A stretch of 64,000 nt of DNA from Nanobdellati archaeon (GCA_019429125.1 JAHYJO010000001.1:7088-71087); one strand, 5' to 3'. Positions 22,401-39,293 are shown, counted from the stretch's first letter. Notes: generated by a model from the letters alone, not told the origin. Numbers and translations are program-made.

Positions 22401-25326
22401 TGGGCTTTCAGGTTTTAATGTTACGTTTAATCCAGTTAATGTATCTGATCTTGGAGCTATTTTGTCTCGTTTGATTTATGTTAATGTTTCTGTACCATTT
22501 GCTCAGTCTCCAGGAAATTATACAGGCTTAATAAATATTACTTCTGTAGATGGGGGATATGATACTGTTGAGATTAATGTAAGTGTCGTGACTAGAAAAG
22601 CTTGGGATGTTACACCTAAAACTTGTCTCCGGTCTGAGAATCCTGATACAGGTACCGTGTGTCTTGTCAGTATCATGAATACTGGGAATGTTCCGTTAAA
22701 TTTTACGATTAATCCTGTGGAAATTAATTATACTTCTGTAAATGAAACAAACATGACTGTGTTAAAGGATTCAATATATGTGGTTGAGTTTTTGTATAAT
22801 GTAACAAATGTGACCCGGACATTTTATTATGAGAATTATACGATTAATGTGAATGATGTTGATGTTTTTCCGCAATATTATGATTTTAATATTACGCTTG
22901 TCCCTTATGTTGAGCCTTTATTTTCTGTAAATTTGAGTGAAGTTGTAGCTCAACAGGATACGAGCATTGAAATATTTGTAAATATAACTGACAGGTCTAC
23001 AACTGGTATAAATTGGACAAGGTTGAATGTTACACTGCCAAATGGTACGGTTGAGACTTTTAATATGTCACTTGTTTCGATAAATGGTACAGATAGCTTA
23101 TGGTTCTTTAATTATTCTGGAAACATGTCTGATTTTGTTAATTATACAGATGGCAATGTGTCGCTTAATATTTCTAATTATACAGGTACTACTCTTGCAC
23201 GAGGTATATATAATATGACTATTTCATCACAGGATAATACTGGTGTAATTGGGTTATATAGTAGTAATTTTAAAATATATACAACTTTTGTTATAGGGTT
23301 TACTCCAGGGTCAACAAAGTATTATCAAGGTTCTTTAGGTATGATATATTATACTGTTACAGATACGAATGGGGATGCTATTGAAGGCGCTAATGTTACG
23401 ATATCACTTAAAGATCCAAATGGTTATGTGATATATATTGAGAATTTTATGATGGATTCAACAGGACAAGTGTCACCTGTGCCGACATTTTCTATCGCTA
23501 ATGATGCAACAGTTGGTATTTATAATTTTACTGCGGAAATGACTTATTATGATACTGTCTTGGAGACGAATGTGACAGTTGTTGATAATTCAACGTTTAT
23601 ATTACAATCGGGAAGTTCAGGTGGAGGTGGCGGTCTCACGGCAGACATTGATACGGGAGTATTGTGGTATCCTGATAATGTTATGCGCTTTGAGATGTGG
23701 TTCTCTTATGCAGGCAATGTCACAGAACCAGATAACATGACACTTTTTGTATATGATCCTGCTGAAAATCTATATTTTAATATAAATCTGAATGATACAA
23801 ATAATACTGCGCCCGGACTATATCATTATAAATTTGCAATGCCCATGAGTTCGGCGTCAGGGTATTACTATGCTATTCTTACTGCATCAAAAGAGGGTTT
23901 TGTAAGTCAAAAAGTGAAACCATTTAGGGTGTCTAAAGGAGGACCGTATGATGTCCGTGTGATGTTAATACCACCTAATGAGGTTGAGCGTCAGGATTAC
24001 GTCAATTTCAATCTATATATAGAGAATATGGGTGAGGTTACTCAAGATGTATATATTGATTATTGGGTGTCTTTTGGGAATGATACTTATTATTATAACA
24101 GTGAGGCGGTTCTTACTCCTGCTGGTGTAAATGTTACTATTACACGAAGTGCATACATATTTTCAAATCAGCCATTAGGTATAACTACTCTTAATGTTAT
24201 GGCAACATATGATAGTGTACAACCACCTATCATTTCAAATACTACTTTTGAAGTGATTGAAGATGAAATTGTGATTCCACGAAAACCGGATATTCCAGAA
24301 GTATCACCACCATTACCTACTGGGTGGCCTGAGATACCTGACAATATCGGTGGAGGAAGCAGTTTTCAACCCAATTCTGAATTTGATGAGGAATACAGCA
24401 TCGATATTGATACATACAATAAAGAAATAAATATCGTGAAAGGATGGACAGATATAAGCGGGATCCGTGTGAGAAATAATGGTTTGGATACAATTAATAA
24501 TATCACTCTGGAACTGACCGGCATACCTATGTCATGGTTTAATATAACACCTAATATGTATGAGACGATACCCTCGGGAAACAGTACCTTATTCCTTATT
24601 GAATACAGTGTGCCTAAAGATGCGAATTCAGGTGTGTATCCTTTTAATCTCATTGCAATATCTAATGAGATATCATCTAGTAAGATGGGGCGACTTATTG
24701 TGTTTACATCTATTGAAGAGTTGATAAGGCATGATATAGTCAATTTAAAGATTGAGATAAGTAAGATTGAAGAAGATATATATTTCTCTCAACGTATAGG
24801 GAAAGAGGTTTCACATATATGGAACACGGTTGATCAGGCATGGTCTGAACTTGTCCTTGCGGAAGAAAATGCAGATGCTAAATTATTTGATGATGCACTC
24901 CAGAATATACAGGTGGTTTCTGGACTTGTAAAAAGAGCTAAGATGCTTCTTGAGACATCATCAAAAATTGAAGATCTTGATGATGGGAATATTTGGATTA
25001 CTGCTTTGAAAGTGTTAGTTGTTATGGGGCTATTTGCGCTGGTCAGTGTATGGTGGATACGTAAAAAGGATAAGTTCAAGCTAAAAAAATCATTGAATAA
25101 ATTTAAGAAAAAAACATTGAGTAAAGAGGAGATTGAGATACGTCAAAAAGAGTTAATTTATGATAAAACTAAAATTCAAAGAGTATTGAAGCTTTTAGAG
25201 CGTGAGTCCAAAGATGGAACAATAAATAAAGATGCGTATGATGAATTAAAGAATATTAACGATAAAAAGTTATCTGCAATTGATAAAAAAATAAAAAGTT
25301 TGGGCGCCAATAAAGGAAGCAAATGA
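19405..25326 (+). CDS. 1,973-aa secreted surface glycoprotein with an N-terminal signal peptide, tandem ~210-aa Cys-containing modules, and a C-terminal TM anchor plus short cytoplasmic K/E-rich coiled-coil tail.
   Basis: TTG start 5 nt after the upstream stop. Signal peptide MSVKANKQWHIYVVIAVLALMFFSNSVMA. Many NxS/T sequons. Duplicated module (...NLTANSTFESCGDVFMNLSCVKDFNISI... / ...NLSANSTFEQCGRVNDSGYCTEQFNITIS...). TM ALKVLVVMGLFALVSVWWIRKK near the C-terminus. Confidence 0.8.
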   Translation: MSVKANKQWHIYVVIAVLALMFFSNSVMASFDSYWFDTDWHFRTNFTINNTDYDRDYWPVELDINFTDIMLQSGKNGTFDNESIRVIEHDFSGAVLFEHPFQFDNKIGFNVSTNAVGTIVFLLNGTTNANQIRYIYVYFDTVENTVKVPVSYSTNLVYSWDGEEAHVNNSLFNMKIDTLRGENTSGIYDIYSNNIIFSTSSTNKTKEYTQFSNGTDIFSFDFRNNATFSGGNIKRVMEQTGVETLWNNPGLVTGFGFMKKRYIFYENTSWIKIEQNYTNVGVSSVTRNSTSAGALSVNDISTDEFNGPFRFGDMTNPMSWYGASDGSRGLGLINFNYSSNANFYVKNDTILDRMGIHLDPVVIIPNESVTNTVIMQFNGINYNQAMLESLRNQMAYPPIIVLENNQFIPVTIVPKINYSIYNRNDSVLIIANVTSDKYNVITSMNATVDIGTASTSDDILISLYDDGLSLHGDEVAYDGIFSNIFNPSENSIIGVWDVTVRAFDSFDVVLNEVNVSFNVSDMYNVSINISNPSGLVDRVIYVIITVLNIRDEYIGGVSFNCTYGAGLLTNITDYDNGTYILNFTAPSITGNYILGCNGTKFNNMGNDSQFFNTETSETTIALAVSPQNYTSDNISLLVGDYFEISVNATDVGGANAKYVNISLSLPVNLTANSTFESCGDVFMNLSCVKDFNISIINGTVSGNYTINVSATWLNPNLLTNSTNISFITYVYSNPVIDILGGGLTGVVPDGKNVTLGSFNVDSIGNSDLTNITFNVSGISDFIVIFSPKNISSLSFGSSQPVSVEVIVPQDYVSGNYSGIINISSDNGGWKTVELNLTVPGTTIISLHKTPDNYTSSIISLYSGDSFDVDAIMTNDGISDAKDVNITLSMPQNLSANSTFEQCGRVNDSGYCTEQFNITISAFTVPGNYTFNMTSTWVNPDLSTDSVLLNFTVQVVSNPIIDVIGNISTELPDNSFVAAGNFTIYSIGNYNLTNITFDVIGLSGFNVTFNPVNVSDLGAILSRLIYVNVSVPFAQSPGNYTGLINITSVDGGYDTVEINVSVVTRKAWDVTPKTCLRSENPDTGTVCLVSIMNTGNVPLNFTINPVEINYTSVNETNMTVLKDSIYVVEFLYNVTNVTRTFYYENYTINVNDVDVFPQYYDFNITLVPYVEPLFSVNLSEVVAQQDTSIEIFVNITDRSTTGINWTRLNVTLPNGTVETFNMSLVSINGTDSLWFFNYSGNMSDFVNYTDGNVSLNISNYTGTTLARGIYNMTISSQDNTGVIGLYSSNFKIYTTFVIGFTPGSTKYYQGSLGMIYYTVTDTNGDAIEGANVTISLKDPNGYVIYIENFMMDSTGQVSPVPTFSIANDATVGIYNFTAEMTYYDTVLETNVTVVDNSTFILQSGSSGGGGGLTADIDTGVLWYPDNVMRFEMWFSYAGNVTEPDNMTLFVYDPAENLYFNINLNDTNNTAPGLYHYKFAMPMSSASGYYYAILTASKEGFVSQKVKPFRVSKGGPYDVRVMLIPPNEVERQDYVNFNLYIENMGEVTQDVYIDYWVSFGNDTYYYNSEAVLTPAGVNVTITRSAYIFSNQPLGITTLNVMATYDSVQPPIISNTTFEVIEDEIVIPRKPDIPEVSPPLPTGWPEIPDNIGGGSSFQPNSEFDEEYSIDIDTYNKEINIVKGWTDISGIRVRNNGLDTINNITLELTGIPMSWFNITPNMYETIPSGNSTLFLIEYSVPKDANSGVYPFNLIAISNEISSSKMGRLIVFTSIEELIRHDIVNLKIEISKIEEDIYFSQRIGKEVSHIWNTVDQAWSELVLAEENADAKLFDDALQNIQVVSGLVKRAKMLLETSSKIEDLDDGNIWITALKVLVVMGLFALVSVWWIRKKDKFKLKKSLNKFKKKTLSKEEIEIRQKELIYDKTKIQRVLKLLERESKDGTINKDAYDELKNINDKKLSAIDKKIKSLGANKGSK

Positions 25327-25756: not shown

Positions 25757-26791
25757 TTGTGGATTATTATGTTGTGGAGTCAGATGAGGTTAAGATATTT
25801 TAAAAAACAATTCTGCTTGGGCAGTCTTATTATATATGTTAGTTTTATGGTATGTTTATTCATCTTTACTAATCCAATTTATGCAAAAGAACTTCAGGTT
25901 GGTGTGTCTCCTTTAATGCTTGATCTTGGAACTGTGAAAAAAGGAGAAAGTGTTGTGGGGTCATTTTTTATTGTGACGTCATCACAAGATGATATTATTG
26001 TGAAATTAAAATCATCACGTTCTAATTTTGATTTCTTTAAAAAACCTATAAATATAGATATTGTTAATTATGTGTCTGAAGAAGATAGTTCCGGATGGGT
26101 TTATTTTCCTGAGAATCCATATGTTCTCAAATCTACAGAGTATGTGTTAAATACCAAAGGCGGAACAATATCTGATTGGAAAAATGTTAATTTTGTGTTG
26201 AATGTCCCTGAGGATGCTGAGTCATGCTATCATGCATTTAAGATTGAACCTACACCTTATACAACAAAAGAAGAGGCTAGTTCTGTAAGTATTGTTGCAA
26301 TGGTAACGATTACTGTGAAATTTCAGGTTGCTGGTGGATGTGAGGTCAATGGAAATATATTGGATGTCATGCAGGATACTTCAAGTAAATATATTGATTT
26401 AGGTGTATATTTTAAGAATACAGGTAATGCAACGTTTTCAGCGTATAGTCCTGACGTGATGATATTTTATGAGAATGGCACATTGCTTGATAAGCAACGT
26501 TCGGGATATGCTTATTTTACTCCTGGAGATATTGGTGTGTTGAATGCACGGTTTGATCCAAAAAAGATTGTTCCTGGTAATTATATTGTAAATACTACAG
26601 TATTATATGGTGCTAATACAACATCAAAACAAGTGCCACTTACTATTGAAAGATCAGTGGTTGCAAAAATATCGACAGTAGTTTCAAAGACACCTGATGG
26701 TACTGATAATACTTTTTGGATATTGCTACTTGCAATAATTCTGATAATTGTTGGCGCCTATAAATTCTATAAGGTCGAAGATAAAAGATAA
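25757..26791 (+). CDS. Exported protein (344 aa) with an N-terminal signal anchor and a C-terminal TM (FWILLLAIILIIVGAYKFY). Hypothetical surface protein.
   Basis: ORF with hydrophobic N-terminus, NxS/T sequons and a C-terminal hydrophobic helix followed by a basic tail. Confidence 0.6.
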   Translation: MWIIMLWSQMRLRYFKKQFCLGSLIIYVSFMVCLFIFTNPIYAKELQVGVSPLMLDLGTVKKGESVVGSFFIVTSSQDDIIVKLKSSRSNFDFFKKPINIDIVNYVSEEDSSGWVYFPENPYVLKSTEYVLNTKGGTISDWKNVNFVLNVPEDAESCYHAFKIEPTPYTTKEEASSVSIVAMVTITVKFQVAGGCEVNGNILDVMQDTSSKYIDLGVYFKNTGNATFSAYSPDVMIFYENGTLLDKQRSGYAYFTPGDIGVLNARFDPKKIVPGNYIVNTTVLYGANTTSKQVPLTIERSVVAKISTVVSKTPDGTDNTFWILLLAIILIIVGAYKFYKVEDKR

Positions 26792-26799
26792 ATGCTAAT

Positions 26800-26890
26800 A
26801 GATGTTAATAGATGATAATCTAGAATAATTGATGATAATTGATGATAATTGATGATAATTGATGATAATTGATGATAATTGATGATATAT
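26800..26890. repeat. 10-bp tandem repeat: (gatgataatt) x5 perfect at 26831-26880, plus degenerate flanking copies, about 9 units in all.
   Basis: Directly visible. Starts about 10 nt after the stop of the 25757-26791 gene. Non-coding. Confidence 0.9.
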
Positions 26891-27218
26891 CTATATTTTT
26901 TTGGTTTTTGTTAATTATTATTTTATTCAAACTTTGACATTTCTGACTTTTTTGTTTTTTATCGTTTTTTAAACACCTGAATTGGACAGATATTAGTACA
27001 GTACTAGATTGCGTTTTTTATGTTTTTTAACTTATTTTTCAATACCTCATTTGACAATTTGTATTCATAAATCAAAATATGTTATTAGGGGTTTGATATA
27101 TATTGAAATTCCGATTTAATCTATAATAAAAATTAAGAAAATTCATAAAAAGTAGCCAAATGAATTTGACAGTTGGGCTAAAATTTAAAAAAATGATTAA
27201 ACAAATAGATATTTATTC

Positions 27219-27475
27219 GTACTTGTTTAGCAAAAAAATAATCGGCATACTACGATCATCATGATGTGATTTACATACATTATACTTTTTATAAAATCAA
27301 TAGCTACAGCTTGAAAATGTGTAGTTAATTTTTGTTAAAAAATATTTACTCCTTTTTTGTAAAATCGATAGCTTGCAAGTAACGTAGAAAATTATAACTT
27401 AAAAATATTTCAACAAATAATGACCGTATCAAAAAAATCGTAAGCAAGTAAGACAAAATTTAGCTAAACAAGTAC
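27219..27475. mobile_element. 257-bp MITE-like non-autonomous element, copy 1. It has perfect 13-bp terminal inverted repeats GTACTTGTTTAGC/GCTAAACAAGTAC and is flanked by a perfect 8-bp direct duplication ATTTATTC.
   Basis: TIR at 27219-27231 and 27463-27475. ATTTATTC at 27211-27218 and 27476-27483. 97% identical to the second copy at 63509-63765. No ORF. Confidence 0.7.
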
Positions 27476-27676
27476 ATTTATTCTTATTTTTTACCATAAA
27501 TTAACTTATTTTTAGTCAAAAAGAAAGAAAATTATATGGAAAATGGAAGTAAAGTACTAAAAATAGCTAACTGTCAAATAGATATTCTGAATGAAATAGT
27601 TAACAAACTGTCAAACTTAGGTTTCATCTCTAGTTCAGTGGGTAATGTGGGCTCTTGAGAGCAATTATTATGAACC

Positions 27677-27684
27677 TATATAAG
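27677..27684 (+). promoter_or_regulatory. Candidate archaeal TATA box (tatataag) about 32-39 nt upstream of the ATG at 27716. This implies a leaderless or very short-leader transcript.
   Basis: TATA-like octamer at appropriate spacing. Inference only. Confidence 0.35.
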
Positions 27685-27715
27685 TACTTAAAACCAATAA
27701 TATTTTGTGTTCTCT

Positions 27716-28264
27716 ATGAAAAAACAGTCAAAAAACTCAAAAAAAATAAATTTAATTAAATCTTTACCAATAATCATGCTTGCTGTATTGATTGTTTCTT
27801 TGTTTGCTATCGTTTTTCATACACCCTCCTTTGAATCTGATAATCCTGTTAAGAATCATACTGTGCTGTATGAGGAAGGTATGTTTTACACTTATGAGAT
27901 TAATAAGTATCCCACTTCTGTGGAGATAAGTGATATTGATGAACGTAACCTGTCTGTTGGTTTTTCACTTGAGACATCAAGTCTTAATTTCGGGGTAGTT
28001 CCTACAGGAGGGAATATGGGTAAGAGGTTTTTGACTTTAAAGAATACGCAGGACAGTAAAGCAAAGATGATGTTTGTGGTATATGGTGGTATATCTCCTC
28101 TGATAAAGTTTAATGATAACGAATTTTATCTTTTGCCCGAAGTTCTTAAAGACATTGAGATTGTGCTTGAGACAAAACAGGACACAATGGTTGGTAATTA
28201 TTCTGGTGAAATTAATATTGTTGTCAAAAGGTCAAAATATGAATTTTTAGAATGGTTGTTATGA
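27716..28264 (+). CDS. Hypothetical exported or membrane-anchored protein (about 182 aa). First of an eight-gene same-strand run of exported-protein genes (27716-36405).
   Basis: N-terminal basic region plus hydrophobic helix (LPIIMLAVLIVSLFAIVF). ATG at 27716 is preferred over the track's GTG at 27707. Confidence 0.5.
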   Translation: MKKQSKNSKKINLIKSLPIIMLAVLIVSLFAIVFHTPSFESDNPVKNHTVLYEEGMFYTYEINKYPTSVEISDIDERNLSVGFSLETSSLNFGVVPTGGNMGKRFLTLKNTQDSKAKMMFVVYGGISPLIKFNDNEFYLLPEVLKDIEIVLETKQDTMVGNYSGEINIVVKRSKYEFLEWLL

Positions 28265-28272
28265 GGGTGTAG

Positions 28273-29091
28273 TTGATGCTTAAGGATAAATATTTTTCAT
28301 TTTATTATGTTTCTGTTATTTTGTTATCTATATTTTTTTTATGTACTTCTTTGGTGTACAGTGCGGAAATAAATGTTAATGTGGCTGAACATTTAGATAC
28401 TGTATTAAAAGAGATTGATTGCTGCAAGTTAAATGATAAAGTAATGACTGCCAGTTTTGATGTGTTTAATTCCGGAAGTATTGCATATGCTGCGCGCATA
28501 AGGCTTGATGTGTTTGATGAGGATAATGATAAGAAGATTACATCTGTTTGGAGTAGCAGTTCCGAATTTAATCCTGGACAGAGAGATAGCATCAGTCTTT
28601 ATTGGTATGAGCCGTCAGACACTACACGTATTGCAAAAGTAAGACTTTATAGGGGATATGATATTTTAAATCTTGAAGAGATTACTTGGCGGTTTAATAA
28701 GTCAGTTGAATCTCAATTATCAAAAGGGTTCGGAGAGTTTGCAGATTCTGATAATATTTTTGGAAATATTAATTTTGAGGATGTTCGGGTTTATGAGCAT
28801 AATATAAGATTTAAGATAACAGCAGATGAAGACATTGAAAAAGTAATAGTCTATCCAGTACAATACAAAGAGGGATGGATTTTTGAACAGACTGTTGTAG
28901 AGGATGTCATTGCGGATAAACCAAGAATTGTGGATGTCAATTATGATACTGGTTTTTTCTATGAAAATGAAATAACGTTGGTTGCGGTAAGTTCTGATGG
29001 CGAATATTACGGTGAACAGAAGGTGTTACTTAAGAAAGAGTCAGGTATCCGAAAATGGTTGAATCTTTTTGTAGATATGTTGAAGATATAA
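28273..29091 (+). CDS. Hypothetical secreted protein (272 aa) with a signal peptide.
   Basis: Signal-like N-terminus (VILLSIFFLCTSLVYSAEIN). Starts 9 nt after the upstream stop. Confidence 0.55.
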   Translation: MMLKDKYFSFYYVSVILLSIFFLCTSLVYSAEINVNVAEHLDTVLKEIDCCKLNDKVMTASFDVFNSGSIAYAARIRLDVFDEDNDKKITSVWSSSSEFNPGQRDSISLYWYEPSDTTRIAKVRLYRGYDILNLEEITWRFNKSVESQLSKGFGEFADSDNIFGNINFEDVRVYEHNIRFKITADEDIEKVIVYPVQYKEGWIFEQTVVEDVIADKPRIVDVNYDTGFFYENEITLVAVSSDGEYYGEQKVLLKKESGIRKWLNLFVDMLKI

Positions 29092-29097
29092 TATGGG

Positions 29098-31929
29098 ATG
29101 CTTAAGGAGATTTGTATGAAATTTGGATATGTATGTTTTATTGTTTTTATCTCCTTGTTATCTTTAGGAAATTGTGTGTATGCAGTGCCAGTATTGAATG
29201 ATTTATCTGTTCAGAATCAAGAAATTTGGCTTGGTGAAACAGAGATAATATTTGTAAATTGTACAGATGATAATCAGATTGTATCTGAGGTGTATGCAGA
29301 TATAAGTACAACGAGCGCATTGTATCCCGGTAATTCTTTCTTGTTGGATGCAGACGGTACTTATTATTTGCCTGTGTCTACATCTTTACAGTCTAATTTC
29401 AATAAGGTTGGTATCTTTGATGTGGTGGTCTATTGTCGGAATGAGAATGGGGATTCTGTAAATTCGTCCATATCATTTACTGTCTCAAATTTGAGTCTTG
29501 AGATTAGTAGTATGTCATCTTCTGTATATATCGGAGACATAGCGGAGATTAATCTTTTTGTCAAGAAAGATGGAAGTTCAATAAGTTCTGATGTCATTGA
29601 TTTTGAGGTGTTTTATGCAGGCAAAACAATATCTTTATTGTCACCACCTTATTATGATTTTGAAAAAGGGTGGGTATTAAGATACTCTACTGCTACTTTT
29701 GTGGCTGGGACTTATACATTTTCTATTGTTGCAAATTATTCTGGTAGTGAGATTGAGGCAACTAAAGGAGTAAGTATATATAATCCTGTTGATTTTTCAA
29801 TAGTTAATGTTGGTTCTTCATGGATTTCAATAGAAGAGACTGTCACTGTCTCGGTGAAAGCAACTGAGAGAGGTAATCCTATAAAAATAGATGAAAATAA
29901 GATGTCTGTACGTATCGATTCAACAACTGTAAGTAGCTTTGAGGTATTGGCGGCGTCAACAAGTAATGTTTATGATATAATATTTACAGCACCATCATTG
30001 TCTTCTGGAAAACATACACTTAAAGTATATTTTAAGTATGAGAATGATTCATTATATGATTCTGAGAATGTAATATATGTAATATCTGCTTCAGGGGTCA
30101 TGTTTATTGAAACAGATAATACTCATGTGGTTGACTTAAAGTTTAAGTCAGATAAAATAACCAAAGATGTGCGGACGGATAATAAAGGGAAATATTTGTT
30201 ATCTTTTCCTCCTGATGTTTATAATATAGAAATTAAAGATAGTTTTTTTACGCTTGGTATATCTAATGTGGAAATAGATGAGTTTGATGATGCGATAAAA
30301 TATCAGTATCTCCCAACATCATATGTGGATGGGATTTCGGGGAGTGGTATATTTTATTATGGTATTGCATCTGAACTGGATTATGATTATCTCAGTCTGA
30401 AATTAAAGTATGATTCAAGTAAGATTCATGATATTTCTTTGCTTGAAGTATATGTATGTACTGATTGGGATACTGGAAATAAGAAATGTCTCTCTGAATG
30501 GAATGTTATTGATTCTGAGATTGACAGTTTGAGGAAAACTGCAACAATTAGTCAGGCAGTGCTTAATGCAGCATATATAGTTGGAAATATTGATTCGTTG
30601 AATGTTGCAGGAACCATTGAAAAGGCGATATATAATATTAATGATGAGATAAAGATAACAGGACTTAGTCAGGACACTGCAAAAAATGTGGTTTCTGATG
30701 TAACATTTGATGCATATATTTCAGGAACATCTATTGAAGCTTCAGGTGTGTCTGATTCAAAAGGATTGTTCTCATTCAGTATTTCAAATCCAAAAGATGA
30801 AGGCAATTATACTCTTATCATAAATGCATCTAAAGATCCGTTTTTATCGGCACAAAAAAAAATTTATTTTGAGGTCTTGAAGAGAAAAGATGTGGCTATT
30901 GTCAGTCCTGATACAATCCGTTTGTATCCGGGGGATTCGTCGGAGGTTGAATTTTTAATAATAAATACGGGAGAATCTGCTCTGTCAAATATGTCTGTAT
31001 CATTGAATGGTTTACCATCGAGTTATTATCAGATGATATATCCGGATAATATCTTGAATCTGAAAGAATCTGAAGAGAGCTCAATTATTGTTTATTTTGA
31101 TATACCTATTAATGCGTCAAAAGAGATGATTAGTGTGTCATTTGAACTATCAGGGTCTGGGATATCTAAGAAACAAAATGTTGTTATGAATATATTTGCG
31201 CCAAAAAATGATAGTTTAGGGGTAATATCTGCATCTTTATCTGAATCATCAATGTCTGATAATAATTACGGTTTTTTTTCTTTGGATAAATTATCATTAT
31301 TTAGTATGCCTACAGGGAATTCTATTGCACTTTTGGCATCAGGTGAAACCATATATGTGTTCTTGTTTGCGATGTTAAGTTTTTCAACTGCATTCTTATT
31401 TAGGAAACGAAGGTTGACAAATGTATACAGCAACAGATTAAGGGAAAGTAACAGATTGCTCATATTTGAGATAAGAAAGCATATGTTTAAGGTGACGGGT
31501 TCTGATACTATTGATAATTTTAATGTGTGCGGTTGGGGTAGAAGATATGAACAACATAAAAAGCATACAAAAACAAATATGAATATGAATATGAATATGA
31601 ATATGAATATGAATACGGATAATGATATAAATACAAATACAAATAAATCAACAAGTGATATTTCAACAAGATTAGAGAGGGCGATTGTAGCGTCGTGTCC
31701 TGTGGATAAGAGAGTTATTGAACCGAACATTGAATCTGATACAAGATTAGACAAGAAGAAAGACTTAAAATTAGATTTGATCTCTGACATATATGACAAT
31801 CTGAATAAAGATTCAAATGAGAAAAAAGGATTAGATAATTCTGGAGATATAGAGAAATCAGAGGACAATGATGATGTCGATTCAAGCATGAGTGGTGAAG
31901 AATCAGAAACGAAGGTGTTGGAAAATTGA
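29098..31929 (+). CDS. 943-aa secreted glycoprotein with a signal peptide, a C-terminal TM (IYVFLFAMLSFSTAFLF), and a cytoplasmic tail containing an (NM)n / N-T-rich low-complexity tract.
   Basis: Signal peptide MLKEICMKFGYVCFIVFISLLSLGNCVYA. Many sequons. TM near residue 750. The tail includes an NMNMNMNMNMNMNTDNDINTNTN segment. Confidence 0.75.
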   Translation: MLKEICMKFGYVCFIVFISLLSLGNCVYAVPVLNDLSVQNQEIWLGETEIIFVNCTDDNQIVSEVYADISTTSALYPGNSFLLDADGTYYLPVSTSLQSNFNKVGIFDVVVYCRNENGDSVNSSISFTVSNLSLEISSMSSSVYIGDIAEINLFVKKDGSSISSDVIDFEVFYAGKTISLLSPPYYDFEKGWVLRYSTATFVAGTYTFSIVANYSGSEIEATKGVSIYNPVDFSIVNVGSSWISIEETVTVSVKATERGNPIKIDENKMSVRIDSTTVSSFEVLAASTSNVYDIIFTAPSLSSGKHTLKVYFKYENDSLYDSENVIYVISASGVMFIETDNTHVVDLKFKSDKITKDVRTDNKGKYLLSFPPDVYNIEIKDSFFTLGISNVEIDEFDDAIKYQYLPTSYVDGISGSGIFYYGIASELDYDYLSLKLKYDSSKIHDISLLEVYVCTDWDTGNKKCLSEWNVIDSEIDSLRKTATISQAVLNAAYIVGNIDSLNVAGTIEKAIYNINDEIKITGLSQDTAKNVVSDVTFDAYISGTSIEASGVSDSKGLFSFSISNPKDEGNYTLIINASKDPFLSAQKKIYFEVLKRKDVAIVSPDTIRLYPGDSSEVEFLIINTGESALSNMSVSLNGLPSSYYQMIYPDNILNLKESEESSIIVYFDIPINASKEMISVSFELSGSGISKKQNVVMNIFAPKNDSLGVISASLSESSMSDNNYGFFSLDKLSLFSMPTGNSIALLASGETIYVFLFAMLSFSTAFLFRKRRLTNVYSNRLRESNRLLIFEIRKHMFKVTGSDTIDNFNVCGWGRRYEQHKKHTKTNMNMNMNMNMNMNTDNDINTNTNKSTSDISTRLERAIVASCPVDKRVIEPNIESDTRLDKKKDLKLDLISDIYDNLNKDSNEKKGLDNSGDIEKSEDNDDVDSSMSGEESETKVLEN
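31575..31614 (+). repeat. Hexanucleotide microsatellite (AATATG)n, about 6-7 units, in-frame within the 29098-31929 CDS. It encodes the (NM)n segment.
   Basis: Directly visible. The unit length of 6 preserves the reading frame on expansion or contraction. Confidence 0.85.
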
Positions 31930-34411
31930 AAGGAAAAGATATCTTATTTTTTTGATGTTGGTATTTATTTTTCTGTTGCCGTTAATTTATTCACTTCAGC
32001 AGAATTTTATAATTAATGGTAATTTTACATCTGGAAGTTCTTTAGGATGGACTTATTCTGAAGAGGATTTGTCGGGTGTTGGGTCCTCAAATTTTAATGT
32101 GTCTGGTGGTAATGATGATTCTGGAGTATGGTATCTTGAAGTCAATGATAGTCTGTCTGATATAGGGTATAATGTTACCAGCAACTTGACTAATGATGGA
32201 GGATTGTGGTTAAATTCTGGTACTGTTGTTTCTGCTACGGTGCCATTCTCTTATAAACAGACCTGGACAATATCTGCACCTACAGTAAATCTTATTAAGG
32301 TGTTTTTGGTAAAACCTGACAGTTCAGAAGTCATTCTTTTTTCACGTTCGTCAATAGTTGATGATGCTTCATATATGACAGAATCAATAGATGTAGGTAT
32401 TAATAATTTCTCAGACAGTGGGGTGTATAAATTAAAACTGTATAATTATGTTGAGACGTCAGTTTCTGATGTGCTTATTATTCGGAACTTTTGGGACGAT
32501 ATTGATCTTGTTGTGGTATATCAGGATGAGGTGGTGCCAGAGATTACGGTGCAGTCGCCACTGAACAAATCTTATGATAATGATTCAGTATGGGCTAACT
32601 TAACATTGAATGAGGATGGTTCATGGTGTGGATATTCGCTTGACGGTGCAGTAAATATCACTATGTCAAATACATCAGGCAACTGGAACAGTCTTGTTGG
32701 TGGATTGTCTGAGGGTGCACATAAAATTACGTTTTCGTGTAATGATACGGTAGGCAATATGAATACATCTGAAGTCATTGTATATTTTACTGTTGATACG
32801 ACATATCCTCAATATGCATATAATAGTACAAATTCTACGGAAATTGGAAGTTATGTCCTTTTCAGTTTATATTGGACTGACAATTCAGTTTCAGGGTACA
32901 TATTCTCGTTTGATAATGGTACTGGTACATTTGTGAATGACAGTTATGTCAATATGGCTGGTGTTTCTGTTTGGTCAAATGTTAGTAAGCAGATTAATTC
33001 AACTGTTGGTGCACTCATACAGTGGCGCGTGTATGCAAATGATACGGGGGGAAATATGAATGCATCTGAAATATATAGTTTTTATACAGTTGATTCTGAG
33101 GCTCCGGAGATTACGGTGCATTCGCCACAGAATAAATCGTATGGTGCTGATTCAGTATGGGCTAACTTAACATTGAATAAGGCTGGTTCATGGTGCGGAT
33201 ATTCTCTTGATGGGAGGCTAAATGTCACTATGTCAAATACATCAGGCAACTGGAACAGTCTTGTTGAAGGATTGTCTGAATTGACACATAACATTACTTT
33301 CTCATGCAATGATACCTTAGGCAATATGAATACATCTGAGGTCATTGTATATTTTACTGTAGATACTATTAAACCTACATTGTATGTCTACTCACCTGAT
33401 AATATCTCATATACTACAAAATTAATTAATCTGACTGTGGGTGCGGATGAGACTATAGATACTTGGCAATACAGTCTTAATGGTATGACAAATGTGATGT
33501 TTTCACCAAATACAACAATAATTATGCTTGCTGGAGTCAATAACATAACAGTCTATGCTAATGATACTTCCGGAAATATGAATAGTACTGTGGTTTACTT
33601 TTTATTAAATACGACGCTTGAGGTTGAACTTGTGGAACCAAGCACTATCTTTGTTACAAATATCATAAAAGGTACACAATTCATCATAAATGCAACTGTC
33701 ATATGTAGGGAAGGTGATTGTGGGGATGTGTCTGCTACGGTGCGATATAATGAGACATCAGTCAATCCGGATACAGCAGTCAATATAACTGTGGGTGCTG
33801 AACCATTCTTTATTGATGAAGCATCACCAGTATCTACAAAATCTTGTTCTACAAATCCATTGTCTGAAAATGAATATTGCAATGTGTCTTGGGTGATTAA
33901 TGCGACTGATTCAGGTCTTGATTTATGGAAATTTGATGTCAATTTCAGTTCTGATACGGGTTGGACGACAATCAATAATACATTATTTTCTGAGATTTCA
34001 GTTGTACCGTGTGTTGTTGATTTTACTGTTACTTGGACATCTATAGATTTTGATAAGGCTCTAGTGCCTAATACATATCAAAATCCTGCAGTAGGCAATG
34101 ATGGTAATATTTATAACATAACAATCAATGATGGCAGTTGTAATACGGATGTGTATATTAAGGGTACGGATATGGTGGGTGAGGATACCAATAATATTCT
34201 GGGTGCAGGGAACCTTACATGGAGCAACAGTTCTAATTTGTATAGCACTTCATATAATATGACCGAAATATATATGCCATTGAAGTTTGATGTGCAGTCA
34301 TCTACAAATATTACTACATGGTACTGGATTGATATACCACCAATATTTGCTGAGAGCTATAATGGGACTGTATATATACAAGGTGTTAAAAATGGGGATC
34401 CACAACCGTAG
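31892..34411 (+). CDS. 839-aa secreted glycoprotein with three tandem ~190-aa Ig-like modules. The start overlaps the upstream gene by 38 nt; an alternative start is at 31955.
   Basis: K/R-rich N-region plus hydrophobic core (LIFLMLVFIFLLPLIYS). Dense sequons. Internal tandem duplication. Confidence 0.7.
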   Translation: MVKNQKRRCWKIERKRYLIFLMLVFIFLLPLIYSLQQNFIINGNFTSGSSLGWTYSEEDLSGVGSSNFNVSGGNDDSGVWYLEVNDSLSDIGYNVTSNLTNDGGLWLNSGTVVSATVPFSYKQTWTISAPTVNLIKVFLVKPDSSEVILFSRSSIVDDASYMTESIDVGINNFSDSGVYKLKLYNYVETSVSDVLIIRNFWDDIDLVVVYQDEVVPEITVQSPLNKSYDNDSVWANLTLNEDGSWCGYSLDGAVNITMSNTSGNWNSLVGGLSEGAHKITFSCNDTVGNMNTSEVIVYFTVDTTYPQYAYNSTNSTEIGSYVLFSLYWTDNSVSGYIFSFDNGTGTFVNDSYVNMAGVSVWSNVSKQINSTVGALIQWRVYANDTGGNMNASEIYSFYTVDSEAPEITVHSPQNKSYGADSVWANLTLNKAGSWCGYSLDGRLNVTMSNTSGNWNSLVEGLSELTHNITFSCNDTLGNMNTSEVIVYFTVDTIKPTLYVYSPDNISYTTKLINLTVGADETIDTWQYSLNGMTNVMFSPNTTIIMLAGVNNITVYANDTSGNMNSTVVYFLLNTTLEVELVEPSTIFVTNIIKGTQFIINATVICREGDCGDVSATVRYNETSVNPDTAVNITVGAEPFFIDEASPVSTKSCSTNPLSENEYCNVSWVINATDSGLDLWKFDVNFSSDTGWTTINNTLFSEISVVPCVVDFTVTWTSIDFDKALVPNTYQNPAVGNDGNIYNITINDGSCNTDVYIKGTDMVGEDTNNILGAGNLTWSNSSNLYSTSYNMTEIYMPLKFDVQSSTNITTWYWIDIPPIFAESYNGTVYIQGVKNGDPQP
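32533..33672 (+). repeat. Intragenic tandem duplication with a ~570-bp period, two well-conserved copies (roughly 88% nt identity), followed by a third diverged copy.
   Basis: tcagtatgggctaacttaacattgaat... recurs at ~32590 and ~33160. Antisense ORFs 32572-32778 and 33082-33345 are near-identical shadows of each other. Confidence 0.8.
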
Positions 34412-35069
34412 TCTTATATTATTTGCAATGTTGTTTGCGTTATTATTAGTGGAACCTGTGTGTGCATTCAATCTTGGTACTTTACAGAAAACTACAAGTT
34501 ATAATGTCACTTCTGGGGAGACTGTTCAATTTGATATTTTATTCTGGAACACGGAAGCTATAGGTTATAATTTACAATTGGAAATTGTTCACGTACCTAA
34601 AGATTGGGTTGTAATCTCTGACCCTTCTATGTTTTATCTTGATAATAATTATTCGGGTAAGATTGAACATATGTATATTTCCCGACTTAAGAAAACTGTT
34701 AATGCAGCTTTAGTAAATGTTTATGTTTATGTTCCTAAATCAGAAAAGTTGGGTAAATATACTGTGGTGTTGAAAGCTGTGGCAGGTGAGGGGGATTCTA
34801 TATCTGGTTTTTCGTTGAGGCAGGAACGCACTTTCTTTTTTGATGTCTATGTGACAGAAGATTTATATCTGGACGCACACAATGATGAAATAGAATCAAA
34901 AAGTGTTTCTATAGATATAAAGCCTATTATTAACCATAAAAAAAGCGATGTATTGTATAGGGGTTCAGAACGACCTGTTAGTATATTTCAATATATGAAG
35001 GGTGTTATTTTTTTGTTGATAATTATAATGATTTTATGGATTGCACGGAGGATATATGAATATGATTGA
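34392..35069 (+). CDS. Hypothetical exported protein (about 225 aa) with a signal peptide and a C-terminal TM (VIFLLIIIMILWIARRIY).
   Basis: ATG at 34392 gives signal peptide MGIHNRSLILFAMLFALLLVEPVCA. It overlaps the previous gene by 20 nt in another frame, so the track start at 34287 was not used. Confidence 0.6.
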   Translation: MGIHNRSLILFAMLFALLLVEPVCAFNLGTLQKTTSYNVTSGETVQFDILFWNTEAIGYNLQLEIVHVPKDWVVISDPSMFYLDNNYSGKIEHMYISRLKKTVNAALVNVYVYVPKSEKLGKYTVVLKAVAGEGDSISGFSLRQERTFFFDVYVTEDLYLDAHNDEIESKSVSIDIKPIINHKKSDVLYRGSERPVSIFQYMKGVIFLLIIIMILWIARRIYEYD

Positions 35070-36405
35070 CAAGAAATATTTTATCTTTCTGTTTGGAATT
35101 ATTGGTCTTCTTATTATAATACAGGTTCAGTCATCAATTCTTGAATCCTCCATAACTGGAAATCTATTATTGAGTGAGGTAAATGTTTCTATAAATGCCT
35201 ATGATAATGGTAAGGTTAGCATCTTGAATTATTCCGATAGGATTGAACAGTATTCAAAGTTAGTTATAGGTGCTGAATTTTTAAATACTGGGAGCACTTC
35301 ATATTCAAAAAGTTTGTTATTGCAGATTGGTACTTATGATGAGAATATGACTATTAGTGCAAACCGTACGGGAACTACAATAGTTATGAAACCAGGGGAT
35401 AGAAGTTTTGATAAATTGACATACACACCGTTATATTATGGATTTTATTGGATGCATTTGATAGTTTCTTATGGGAATAAGACTGCGGATGCGTGGGGGA
35501 CATTTTATGTTGATCCATATTATATCATAGTTATTCCGCCTAATGTAACTGAGGGTGAACCAGGGGGTCCTCTTGATGTAGAAGATACAACAGGTGGCGA
35601 TGGTGATGGTTTAAGTATGGGTGGTGGTGGTGATGATGTGGTTCTGTCTGCGTTATTGGATTCAGGTATATATGATACGGGTCGGATATTGGTCACACTT
35701 TCACATCCAGATAAGATTTCTGTTAGACCTGGGCAATCTTCTGTAGTCTATGTTATTGTCAATAATACGGGGACTATGACGCTTAGGAGGATGATGCTCT
35801 TACCGCGTATTATTGGAAATATTAAGATTGAAGCACAACCTATGAATATCCAGACATTGAAAGGTGGGCAATCTGCAATCTTTATGATTACTCTTGATGT
35901 GCCTTATGATATTTATAATCGTACATATCCATTGGATTTCAAGGTTTTATTTGATAAGGATAGTAGGGCGGGACATATTGATGTTGAAGTGGGACCTGGA
36001 AACCTTGAGGATGATCTTTTAAATATCATACTTAATTATAGGTATATTATAACAAGGCTTACAAGTGAAAGGGATAAACTTTATTTTGAGGGAAAAAATA
36101 CAACACTTCTTGATGAATACATATCTGATGCAGATTATGATTTGGTAATTGCAAAAGAGAATTATGATCTGGGTGATTATGGTCCTGTACGTGAATATCT
36201 TAATGAAACACTGAATCATCTTGAGGATGCTGTTCTTGAACTTGCCAGTCTAAGAAAATCTGATACATTTGTCCTGTTTGCTACCAATGTCTGGTTCTTG
36301 ATAGTGCTGATGATTATAATATCTATTGTGATAGCTGAGGTCTATATGCATAAACGAAAGCATAAGAAATATATTAAATATGAAGGCGAAGATGCGATTG
36401 TTTAG
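35041..36405 (+). CDS. Hypothetical exported protein (454 aa) with a signal peptide, a Gly/Asp-rich segment and a C-terminal TM anchor (WFLIVLMIIISIVIAEVY, followed by KRKHKK).
   Basis: Signal peptide (FIFLFGIIGLLIIIQVQSS). Overlaps the upstream gene. A likely alternative start is MNMIDKK at 35056. Confidence 0.65.
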   Translation: MHGGYMNMIDKKYFIFLFGIIGLLIIIQVQSSILESSITGNLLLSEVNVSINAYDNGKVSILNYSDRIEQYSKLVIGAEFLNTGSTSYSKSLLLQIGTYDENMTISANRTGTTIVMKPGDRSFDKLTYTPLYYGFYWMHLIVSYGNKTADAWGTFYVDPYYIIVIPPNVTEGEPGGPLDVEDTTGGDGDGLSMGGGGDDVVLSALLDSGIYDTGRILVTLSHPDKISVRPGQSSVVYVIVNNTGTMTLRRMMLLPRIIGNIKIEAQPMNIQTLKGGQSAIFMITLDVPYDIYNRTYPLDFKVLFDKDSRAGHIDVEVGPGNLEDDLLNIILNYRYIITRLTSERDKLYFEGKNTTLLDEYISDADYDLVIAKENYDLGDYGPVREYLNETLNHLEDAVLELASLRKSDTFVLFATNVWFLIVLMIIISIVIAEVYMHKRKHKKYIKYEGEDAIV

Positions 36406-36826: not shown

Positions 36827-37723
36827 TTAATATGATGCAACGATTGTTAGTGTTCCTGAAGTTGTGTCTCCGTAAGGGATTCCATTTGGTACTGATGCAT
36901 ATATACTAATTGCGTCTTCTGATCCGGGTATAAGATTATCAGTTATTAAACTTCCACTATTATCACAGTTTGGAAATTGACTTGACATATCATATTTATA
37001 GAGGTATATCTTATCACAAGTATTTGCTGTTGCAATGCAGTATCCTACAAGTGGTCCAGTGGAACATGTAAAGGTTCCCCAGGTAGTGCCTGGTGTAACA
37101 GTAGTACAAGTAGATGCTCCAACTGTTATATCACGATTTAAAGTTGTGTCATTTTCAGGTATAGAACTTATTTGAAATATCGTACCGGTATTATTACATA
37201 CTCCATCTGTTCCATTTTCAACTTTCCATAAATATTCATTACCTGTTGAGTTTCGGTACCACCCGTGAGCAAAAGCATTTGTGTTCTCATTAATATTTAA
37301 TTCTTCTCCAGTTAGTATTGATGAAAGGTTCCATTCAAGACGGCCTGCGTGTGAATGTGCGGAGTCTGTTGAATTCTTTACAAATATAAGACCTGCAGCA
37401 GAATAAGCAGTTACATCTGCTGTTGGTAGTGGGTTTGTTGATTCTACTGTGATTGTATCTGTAGTCATGTATATACCACTAACATTTACTGATCCTGTAT
37501 TTTTGATAATTATATATTCTGAAGCGCCATTTGAACCTGGTTGTAGCAGTGTCCAGTTTATGACATTTGGACTTACAACTATTGTCCCAACAGCTGATAT
37601 ATTAATATTTACAGTTACAGTATCATTTGTATCTACTGCAAATGTGATAGGACCATTTATTAGGGTCAAAAGAATTATTGCCAATGCAAGGGGCATTATG
37701 TATTTTTTATTCATATTAATCAC
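36827..37723 (-). CDS. Hypothetical secreted protein (298 aa) with a signal peptide, a Cys-rich C-terminal half and sequons.
   Basis: N-terminus MINMNKKYIMPLALAIILLTLINGPITFA. ORF ends 10 nt before the hairpin. Confidence 0.6.
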   Translation of the reverse strand: MINMNKKYIMPLALAIILLTLINGPITFAVDTNDTVTVNINISAVGTIVVSPNVINWTLLQPGSNGASEYIIIKNTGSVNVSGIYMTTDTITVESTNPLPTADVTAYSAAGLIFVKNSTDSAHSHAGRLEWNLSSILTGEELNINENTNAFAHGWYRNSTGNEYLWKVENGTDGVCNNTGTIFQISSIPENDTTLNRDITVGASTCTTVTPGTTWGTFTCSTGPLVGYCIATANTCDKIYLYKYDMSSQFPNCDNSGSLITDNLIPGSEDAISIYASVPNGIPYGDTTSGTLTIVASY

Positions 37724-37870
37724 TTGTCTAAATGTTTTTATAGTTTTATTTTGTGATCATGTCGTATATATGTCTTTCGGTTATATGGCACTGTTCAAAA
37801 AGTGAGTGAGTTTTGAGGATATATCTGATAATGTCTTTTTGCGAGTATCATATATTCTGGTGTTATTATT

Positions 37871-39070
37871 TCACATTTTAAAAAAGAATATGATTGTCGG
37901 AATTATCAGGCAACCCATTAACATTGATCTTCTTGCGCCTATTGTCTGCGCATATATGCCTAAGGAGGTTGACGTTATAAGAAGTATGAGTCCTGTTATA
38001 CTTGTGAAAATTATTGTCATAAGAGTAAGAAGAATGATTATTGAGGTACCTAAGATTCTGTAGTCTATCTTTTCTATGATGGTTGTTGCTATCTTTCCGA
38101 TTTTCATTGTTAGTATTGCTGACAGTCCGGCTGACAGGAATGCTACACCAATAAATATTGATAATGTGTTTTTTGTTAGGTCTCCTATTATTGAGTCAAC
38201 CGCTATTGCCACACCTGATCTTGCGTTACCTATTAGGTATATCGCTATAAATGACAGGATTATGTCAATTGTTCCGATTGTGCCGACGGCTATTATGAAG
38301 TTTTTTGCGCCTTTTATCTTTCCTATGTGTTGGACAAGCATTGCTGACTGGGAGGAGCCAAGACCGGGGATTATGCCTGCTACAAGGCCACCTGCAAACC
38401 CTGCAAAGGAGCTTTTGATTGTTCCTTTTGTTTTTATCTTTATTTTTGTGTTTTGTTTTGGTATTTTTGATTTGTTTTCAAGACTCATCAGTATGTTGCT
38501 TATGCCGAAAAGGCCAGCAAAGAGTGGGAATAAGGTGTAGTTTGAGTTTATCATGTGTAAATCAAGGGTTATGGTGCCTAATATCCCTGATAATATGAAA
38601 ATTAAAAGCGATCTTTTCCAGTTGCTACTTCTTGAGATTATGAATGTTATTGCAAGGACTAAAATGTAGGGGATTGATGGTTTTATTGTCTTGTATGCAG
38701 GAGTTACAAGGTCTGCAATCGTTATGAGGAATATCATAAGTATTATCATACCTAAAAGACCACCAATGACTGATAATGCCAGTGCTTCATATCCTTTTCC
38801 TTTAAACAGCATCAGGTGAGTGGGTAGTGTTGTCAAGGCTGTTGCCGGGTCGGGTGCACCGAAAAAGATTGAAGGGATGAAATCCATGAATGAGTGGGTT
38901 GTGCTCATGGTTATTATGAAACAGCTTAAAAGAAGCGGGTCTGTGTCGTAGGTTCTGTGGACTGCGAGCGCAAGGATTGCAATCGTGTTTATGTGAAGGC
39001 CAGGTGTGAGTCCTGTTACTGTTCCAGTTAGGATTCCAGCGATTGAGAATAAGAGTATTAGTTCAAGCAT
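37871..39070 (-). CDS. Polytopic membrane protein, TctA-family (DUF112)-like permease.
   Basis: 399 aa, highly hydrophobic throughout. N-terminal MLELILLFSIAGILTGTVTGLTPGLHINTIAILALAV resembles the TctA/DUF112 signature. Confidence 0.6.
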   Translation of the reverse strand: MLELILLFSIAGILTGTVTGLTPGLHINTIAILALAVHRTYDTDPLLLSCFIITMSTTHSFMDFIPSIFFGAPDPATALTTLPTHLMLFKGKGYEALALSVIGGLLGMIILMIFLITIADLVTPAYKTIKPSIPYILVLAITFIISRSSNWKRSLLIFILSGILGTITLDLHMINSNYTLFPLFAGLFGISNILMSLENKSKIPKQNTKIKIKTKGTIKSSFAGFAGGLVAGIIPGLGSSQSAMLVQHIGKIKGAKNFIIAVGTIGTIDIILSFIAIYLIGNARSGVAIAVDSIIGDLTKNTLSIFIGVAFLSAGLSAILTMKIGKIATTIIEKIDYRILGTSIIILLTLMTIIFTSITGLILLITSTSLGIYAQTIGARRSMLMGCLIIPTIIFFFKM

Positions 39071-39293
39071 TTAATTAATTTGGTTGGATATGTGGGTTAT
39101 AAATTGGTAAACACTTAAGAGGGTGAATTTGAGGAGATGGATAGGTCTGTTTTTACAGTCTTTGCAAATTGTATCTTTACAAGTTTTTGTGTATAGATAA
39201 TCTTATTTATTGAGGAGCGGTCTTATCTTGTTTGTTATGTCTTCTGATTTTTCTATTAATTGTCATCTTGTTTGTTATAATTTTTATAGAAAT

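Follow-up and report, generated by a model that had tools for sequence, protein, structure and literature searches.

The stretch analyzed here comprises 64,000 nucleotides (nt) of a contig from a Nanobdellati archaeon (GCA_019429125.1, JAHYJO010000001.1:7088-71087; hereafter the window). It is an archaeal sequence of ~34% G+C with housekeeping genes aboard, including A-type ATP synthase subunits and NrdD, and the best database matches of its proteins belong to a metagenome-assembled genome (MAG) named "DPANN group archaeon" (locus tags K0B07_00025 to 00060). Between positions 106 and 36405 all genes lie on the + strand in the order gA-gB-gC-g0-spacer-g1-g2-g3-g4-g5-g6. An initial annotation of this DNA had singled out the last six of them, g1 to g6, as a run of genes for exported, membrane-anchored proteins. 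These boundaries proved too narrow, since g0 upstream and g7 downstream belong to the unit; as read from sequence comparison, the true unit is eight genes, namely g0 to g6 and the separately transcribed g7 on the minus strand. The features of the locus are as follows.

106-17355, + strand: gA, 5749 amino acids (aa) as read
17393-19399, + strand: gB, 668 aa
19405-25326, + strand: gC, 1973 aa
25784-26791, + strand: g0, 335 aa, first gene of the conserved cassette; its open reading frame (ORF) opens at 25757
26792-27715, no strand: non-coding spacer between g0 and g1, 924 nt, AT-rich
27716-28264, + strand: g1, 182 aa
28273-29091, + strand: g2, 272 aa
29098-31929, + strand: g3, 943 aa
31892-34411, + strand: g4, 839 aa
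34392-35069, + strand: g5, 225 aa
35062-36405, + strand: g6, 447 aa, counted from the conserved ATG (35041 in the initial annotation)
36827-37714, - strand: g7, 295 aa, co-conserved with the cassette

The six consecutive + strand ORFs lie where the initial annotation had placed them, and each of them has full-length homologues in syntenic loci (25-89% identity), which establishes them as real genes. The tight spacing described for them was also confirmed, with gaps of 8 nt (g1-g2) and 6 nt (g2-g3) and overlaps of 38 nt (g3-g4) and 20 nt (g4-g5). Only the start of g6 has to be moved: the conserved ATG at 35062, rather than position 35041, is most likely the true start, and therefore the g5-g6 overlap would be 8 nt instead of 29 nt.

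To follow the genes across genomes, we pooled 93 distinct loci from a g6 search, a one-genome-per-species scan and a metagenome scan with the g7 profile, mapped the families in these loci by hidden Markov models and phmmer, and counted presence in those 25 that measure 12 kb or more. Any given family was found in 19-21 of the 25, and the g0-g6 order was unchanged in ~20 of them, across lineages at 25-40% identity; the dispersal in relatives that the initial annotation had named as the contrary case was not seen. In the genome loci (L001-L016), g0-g6, g7 and gC occur together at 25-89% identity. The most frequent adjacencies were g0-g1 (40), g1-g2 (39), g0-g7 (39) and g7-gC (39), with g4-g5 counted 24 times. 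Written in the orientation of the window, the commonest order is gA(ATPase end)-gB-gC-[g7 on the opposite strand]-g0-g1-g2-g3-g4-g5-g6. One Aenigmatarchaeota group carries the genes as gC, g3, g2, g1, g0, g7, g6, g5, g4 on mixed strands, yet still together, and its proteins share 25-43% identity with those of the window for every member; therefore the set diverges as a unit. The families occur in Aenigmatarchaeota and in several other uncultivated lineages.

The position of g7 varies between lineages. Most lineages have it between gC and g0, whereas in the clade of the window it has been relocated beyond g6, in either orientation. A segment with g7, tctA and ABC transporter genes seems inverted between the window (36827-41075) and L006 (11411-13126), a relative at 70% identity, and this apparent inversion fits the two orientations of g7 downstream of g6 in this clade. 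Many lineages have tandem pairs of g7 paralogues, as in L020, L027, L028, L034, L035, L037, L039, L053, L066 and L090; these copies could be major and minor subunits. Two adjacent g7 copies (P0032, P0034) were also seen in an NCBI MAG, K0B02.

The initial annotation had further proposed co-conservation with the giant ATPase-fusion gene gA. This holds for much of the material: gC adjoins the cassette in most loci, and gB or the ATPase end of gA lies upstream of gC in all five loci that reach that far (L035, L049, L061, L065 and L090), with the gA ATPase-end homologue standing upstream of gB in L065 (E 1.8e-126). It does not hold for L003 and L097, in which the eight genes are flanked by RNase P/RrnaAD on one side and Pus10/PyrBI on the other and adjoin no giant gene; the cassette is therefore separable, and its link to the giants is frequent but not obligatory. 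The cassette is chromosomal and single in each locus examined. An origin from a mobile element appears unlikely, because its G+C content equals that of the surroundings, its flanks are housekeeping genes and its divergence tracks lineage. The eight genes thus very probably represent a dedicated, conserved multi-gene surface module; the idea first suggested, a "dedicated envelope or attachment locus" instead of scattered genes, is upheld by the order kept in the ~20 loci, attachment itself being a putative role.

Signal and transmembrane (TM) segments were assigned from hydropathy and alignments. An N-terminal hydrophobic segment is present in all six of g1-g6 and is kept in the homologues (21-40 per family; 6/7 for g4). 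The signal peptide originally ascribed to each of the six is therefore right as far as the segment goes, with two qualifications: that of g1 resembles a signal anchor, and g6 has no canonical -3/-1 cleavage site. Type I anchors with basic tails had been counted in four of the six genes, but a C-terminal TM helix is found only in g3, g5 and g6 and is missing from g1, g2 and g4, and the tail of g3 is long and partly acidic. The fourth protein with a C-terminal TM helix is g0 (25784-26791), outside the range covered by the initial annotation. Homologues repeat this pattern closely. The C-terminal TM helix is found in 40/41 relatives of g0 and in 24/24 each for g5 and g6, and all 28 g3 homologues have the TM helix plus a cytoplasmic tail; an N-terminal hydrophobic segment only is present in 40/40 g1 homologues and in nearly all homologues of g2, g4 and g7. 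The membrane topology predicted for the module is conserved, with g0, g3, g5 and g6 tethered by a C-terminal TM helix, g1 held by its N-terminal helix, and g2, g4 and g7 anchorless. The exported pattern is seen in 9 of the 11 genes of the locus and in 1 of the 19 other ORFs of the window, a difference not attributable to chance.

No PGF-CTERM, PEF-CTERM or LPxTG sorting signal was found at any C-terminus in a pattern search of all products, which agrees with the earlier view that the anchors are plain TM helices without sortase or archaeosortase signals. The pattern search likewise found no Tat motif, lipobox or clear class III motif in the products of the locus; a loose class III pattern matched the N-terminus of g5 alone, a segment that is in other respects an ordinary signal peptide. 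On the strength of these motif searches, anchoring by sortase or archaeosortase was rejected, as were type IV pilins and export by the Tat or lipoprotein route.

In our reading, the cassette proteins are of immunoglobulin (Ig)-like β-sandwich type. The g0 protein starts with a signal peptide, continues with two Ig-like domains and ends in a C-terminal TM helix with a short basic tail behind it; it belongs to a large family, for which a library clustered at 50% identity yielded 193 representatives at E<=1e-30. In g1, an N-terminal hydrophobic stretch of 19-22 residues, probably a signal anchor rather than a cleaved signal peptide, precedes one conserved β-rich domain that was likened to an ASH/PapD-like motif by eye. 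The anchorless g2 has a signal peptide and an N-terminal domain homologous to that of g6. After its signal peptide, g4 has an N-terminal domain that was likened by eye to a carbohydrate-binding module (CBM); Ig-like repeats (Big_13, E 1.5e-9) follow, and the C-terminal domain is conserved. The g5 protein has a signal peptide, one β-sandwich related to domain 2 of g0, and the C-terminal TM helix. In g6, the N-terminal hydrophobic segment is followed by a first β-sandwich, a Gly/Asp/Pro linker, a second β-sandwich of NEW3/CARDB-like type, a ~90-aa region that is helical-looking by sequence, the C-terminal TM helix and a basic tail. The g7 protein, with a signal peptide, is β-rich and carries conserved cysteines, which are invariant across 37 diverse sequences with a mean column identity of 40%. 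Its mature N-terminus, TVTVNINISAVGTIVVSP, shows an alternating pattern, ranks among the best conserved stretches of the protein and lies outside the regular sheet in the AlphaFold2 monomer model.

The largest cassette protein, g3, has a signal peptide and several Ig-like domains (matches to Big_7, CARDB and CarboxypepD_reg, all sub-threshold), among them a NEW3/CARDB-like domain homologous to domain 2 of g6. The TM helix lies near residue 750, and behind it comes a cytoplasmic tail of 175 aa that is partly acidic and contains a (NM)7 repeat (residues 769-943, window 31402-31929); the tail is 152-175 aa long in the closest relatives of the window and 16-84 aa in most others. The long tail occupies the position where MinD stands in other lineages, and its motif AIVASCPVDKRVI resembles the MinD segment "pvigvIPeDkkv" (0.1 bits, not significant). 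A decayed MinD gene was considered as the source of the tail and rejected, as the likeness is confined to a motif of 13-29 residues (xIASxPxDKxV) at that same insignificant score.

Domain paralogy ties several of these proteins to one another. Profile-profile comparison (hhalign) gave probabilities of 95% for the N-terminal domains of g2 and g6, 94% for the g3 domain and domain 2 of g6, and 85% for the C-terminal domain of g0 and g5. AlphaFold2 was confident for two of the proteins, and the models show Ig-like β-sandwiches. Searches of Pfam and NCBIfam returned no above-threshold family for g0, g1, g2, g5, g6 and g7; in NCBIfam, g0, g1, g2 and g5 had zero matches, and g6 and g7 had chance-level ones only (E ~0.05). 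PDB sequence and profile searches with g7, g0, g1, g3, g4 and a 151-aa protein encoded at related loci (see below) gave no meaningful match, and exact-sequence look-ups returned no entry for g6, either as read here or as annotated by NCBI. In gA, gC, g4 and g6, the number of N-glycosylation sequons is 2.6-3.4 times that expected, compared with 0-2.1 times (mostly ~1 or less) in the other genes of the window; g4 alone has 48 (2.6 times the expected number), and the excess fits an exposed position for these four proteins.

The neighbors upstream of the cassette are much larger. The gA product combines a very large, sequon-rich ectodomain (2.8 times the expected sequons), one TM region (~5345-5377), a P-loop ATPase of HerA/DUF87 type on the cytoplasmic side and, last, a helical C-terminus. 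The ATPase assignment comes from a DUF87/HerA domain (E 1.4e-9), NCBIfam matches to HerA and CedD, PDB matches to HerA, and Walker A (GGTGSGKS) and Walker B (VYDE) motifs read directly. No signal peptide is found at the apparent start of gA, whose N-terminus is possibly truncated or split by the assembly, because gA is probably the second gene of the contig by locus-tag numbering (g0 is K0B07_00025). Its middle region has repeated domains in common with gC homologues (phmmer, E down to 1e-57), and gA and gC both carry NEW3 and other non-catalytic β-sandwich domains. In gC, a signal peptide, three NEW3 domains and MG2/CarboxypepD_reg-like and GH123_N-like β-sandwich domains are followed by a TM helix (~1863-1881) and a ~90-aa cytoplasmic tail; the protein is of constant length in relatives (1949-1974 aa), and 48 of 50 homologues have the TM helix. 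The gB product has no TM segment and is presumably cytoplasmic; it is of low complexity, rich in charged residues and coiled-coil-like by eye, and a metagenome scan with gB alone returned zero relatives. SHOCT-like motifs were noticed by eye, on the cytoplasmic side, at the C-termini of both gB (19337-19399; ...LAQGLISQETYDKTKKLIIG) and gC (~25180-25326; ...KDGTINKDAYDELKNINDKKL), with no Pfam match for either.

In other lineages, the locus also holds genes for cytoplasmic nucleoside triphosphatases (NTPases). Outside the clade of the window, 11 of the 19 loci showing both g3 and g4 have a MinD/ParA ATPase between the two, and in 26/33 loci g2 and g3 are separated by a gene for an 80-aa helix-turn-helix (HTH) protein or for an HTH-MinD fusion. 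MinD and HTH genes within the cassette are exemplified by L016 (5223-6170 and 10762-12325) and by many metagenome loci. The interval between gC and gB contains, in all five loci available, a protein of 151-155 aa from no known family and a small Ras/Arf-like GTPase, often accompanied by a ParA/MinD ATPase (L065, 7299-9110; L090, 7478-8676; inserts also in L034, L035, L049, L061, L043 and L086), and this set may be a positioning module. Some Aenigmatarchaeota add an M50B-like membrane protease (HEFGH motif), a second MinD and an 84-aa protein. The window has none of these additional genes, and its three long intergenic gaps contain no remnants of MinD, HTH, GTPase, g7 or cassette genes. Taken over all loci, the module is frequently, though not always, linked to gC, gB and the SPEARE-like ATPase fusion, and many lineages equip it with positioning-type NTPases.

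Among described systems, gA is closest in layout to the SPEARE proteins of Nanohaloarchaeota (Hamm et al. 2019, PMC6642349), whose cytoplasmic domain has been re-read as a VirB4/TraG-like ATPase (PMC10266531). Both have a giant adhesion-type β ectodomain, a single TM segment near the C-terminus, a HerA/VirB4/TraG-type ATPase and a helical end, and by this shared architecture gA may be called SPEARE-like. SPEARE-like cytoplasmic domains have been reported in Aenigmarchaeota and other DPANN, and a role in host contact or secretion was proposed (PMC6642349, PMC10266531). The published downstream neighbor of SPEARE is a second VirB4/TraG ATPase, in contrast to the non-ATPase gB, gC and cassette found here; the cassette is also found without an adjacent giant gene, and g0-g7 are not among what the two papers describe. 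The g7 and g0-g6 cassette appears to be previously undescribed: no description was found in the literature searched, the coverage of which is incomplete and does not by itself prove novelty.

Two kinds of bacterial two-domain proteins resemble g0. With WxLIP (DUF916-DUF3324-TM; PMC10599100), the g0 model shares the signal peptide, two tandem Ig-like domains and the C-terminal TM helix. At threshold, WxLIP_PGBD (PF06030) and WxLIP_HBD (PF11797) matched no member of the g0 family, and g0 itself had no match; below threshold, 2 of 10 distant g0 relatives matched with the correct domain order (P0330, PGBD, E 0.024; P0338, HBD, E 1.6e-4), as did none of the 48 aligned members. None of the products has a WxL-domain match at E<=0.1. 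Compared with the WxL/Csc clusters of Firmicutes, the DPANN module has many more parts and a link to an ATPase, and these archaea are without peptidoglycan. The modeled fold of g0 is also similar to two-domain PapD-like chaperones, with a match no better than that to unrelated ASH domains. Chaperone-usher pili (PapD/FimC) differ in that the present system has no usher, no outer membrane and, because g0 is membrane-tethered, no soluble chaperone.

For g7, three weak and independent pointers, none of them significant, lead to donor-strand fibers of the TasA type. The match of g7 to TasA/camelysin (PF12389) scored 19.4 bits, below the cut-off of 22.5 (E 0.001), and 2 of 13 g7 homologues matched this family at E<=0.1; a weak likeness to cannula subunits was also seen. 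Relative to TasA, the AbpA/AbpB bundling pili and cannulae (PMC9245690, PMC9674648), g7 is larger (~270 mature residues) and cysteine-rich, and no homologue of TapA or AbpB was identified here. A type IV pilus or archaellum does not fit the locus, which has no T2SSE or T2SSF domain and an ATPase of the HerA/DUF87 type.

We consider it a plausible reading, to which we give even chances, that the cassette is a DPANN-specific module of eight genes for Sec-exported, Ig-like proteins that build one cell-surface apparatus, the tethered proteins holding the anchorless ones. In such an apparatus, the membrane-tethered Ig-like subunits would form a scaffold outside the membrane, and g0 would be the leading candidate for the scaffold or tether because of its layout, which is that of WxLIP and PapD-like chaperones. 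The scaffold would hold the anchorless subunits, above all g7, by β-strand complementation, and g7 may polymerize via its conserved N-terminal strand; the specific strand-exchange step between g0 and g7 is a doubtful part of this scheme. Contact with a surface or another cell would be made by the heavily glycosylated outer parts, g4, gC and gA. In loci that have gA, its ATPase would energize transport or assembly, and the MinD/ParA and GTPase components would place the machine at one site of the cell. The fullest version, a trans-envelope machine of DPANN symbionts in which gA, gC, the g0-g7 scaffold and a donor-strand tube or fiber, positioned in most lineages by MinD/ParA and GTPase, would serve both attachment to host cells and the exchange of material with them, is tentative and on balance improbable, if somewhat less doubtful than the strand-exchange step taken by itself.

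A housekeeping locus of S-layer type would account for part of the same observations. It would make g7, and possibly g2 and g4, the lattice or canopy and the TM-tethered proteins, especially g6, SlaB-like stalks, with no role in host contact. The order of parts in g6 (signal sequence, β-sandwiches, a region that is helical and stalk-like by sequence, C-terminal TM helix) is what we take to be that of SlaB, the crenarchaeal S-layer anchor, and a chromosomal cassette that occurs once per locus examined amid housekeeping genes of matching G+C content, and that stands alone without giant genes in L003 and L097, suits such a role. Exposed S-layer proteins are usually large and variable, however, and g7 is small (~295 aa) and unusually conserved in its 37 aligned sequences. 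The MinD/ParA, HTH and small GTPase genes embedded in most lineages and the adjoining HerA/VirB4-type ATPase fusion are unexpected for a passive lattice, eight co-conserved components exceed the needs of known S-layer loci, and, in comparison with SlaA/SlaB, no sequence similarity was detected, no large lattice protein like SlaA was identified and the locus carries ATPases. We regard an S-layer as unlikely. Slightly less likely still is a donor-strand fiber operon of the TasA, bundling pilus or cannula type, which partly overlaps the reading of the cassette as one surface apparatus. Here g7 would be the subunit that polymerizes, another exported protein would serve as initiator or anchor in the manner of TapA/AbpB, and the part of membrane-bound PapD-like chaperones would fall to g0 or g1.

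Two further explanations carry much less weight. If the locus encoded a glycan-capture or polysaccharide-processing complex, its NEW3, CBM-like, GH123_N-like, MG2 and CarboxypepD_reg-like domains would serve to bind carbohydrates destined for uptake. The domains in question are non-catalytic β-sandwich modules common in surface proteins, no catalytic glycoside hydrolase, lyase or esterase domain was found in any product, and other lineages show no synteny between the transporters and the cassette, which leaves this explanation quite improbable. An assembly of unrelated genes for secreted proteins, brought together by chance or as a fast-evolving island and sharing no function, would agree with the six products having no above-threshold match beyond generic Ig-like domains (only Big_13 in g4) and with no shared function being documented; it is refuted by synteny, since order and membership are kept across distant lineages, and the similar rates at which all members diverge and the concentration of the exported pattern in the locus speak against it as well. 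We give it next to no credence.

How DPANN archaea attach to their hosts and take up material is a central open question. To our knowledge, only the giant SPEARE proteins and genes of type IV pilus-like kind have been named as candidates so far. The present analysis defines a compact list of parts, eight small protein families of conserved topology and order, usually beside a SPEARE-like ATPase fusion, and with it testable targets: g7 as a possible fiber subunit, g0 as its possible tether and gC as a stalk of constant length. Any function found would apply widely, because the families are large (at least 193 g0 clusters at 50% identity) and spread across Aenigmatarchaeota and several other uncultivated lineages.

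Two minor features of the window concern the DNA between and opposite the cassette genes. The g0-g1 spacer (26792-27715) is unusually long, 924 nt against ~100 nt in relatives. No gene remnants were seen in it, and there is no sign of a structured RNA by folding (z -1.35, not significant) or by Rfam (zero matches); it contains a tandem repeat, (TGATGATAAT)n, of ~7 copies at ~26820-26889, and nested inverted repeats occupy 27117-27506. On the minus strand, g2, g3 and g4 enclose long antisense ORFs of 95-207 aa (28305-28592, 31266-31889 and 33595-33975); we take them as composition artefacts of the coding strand, the syntenic homologues belonging to the sense genes.

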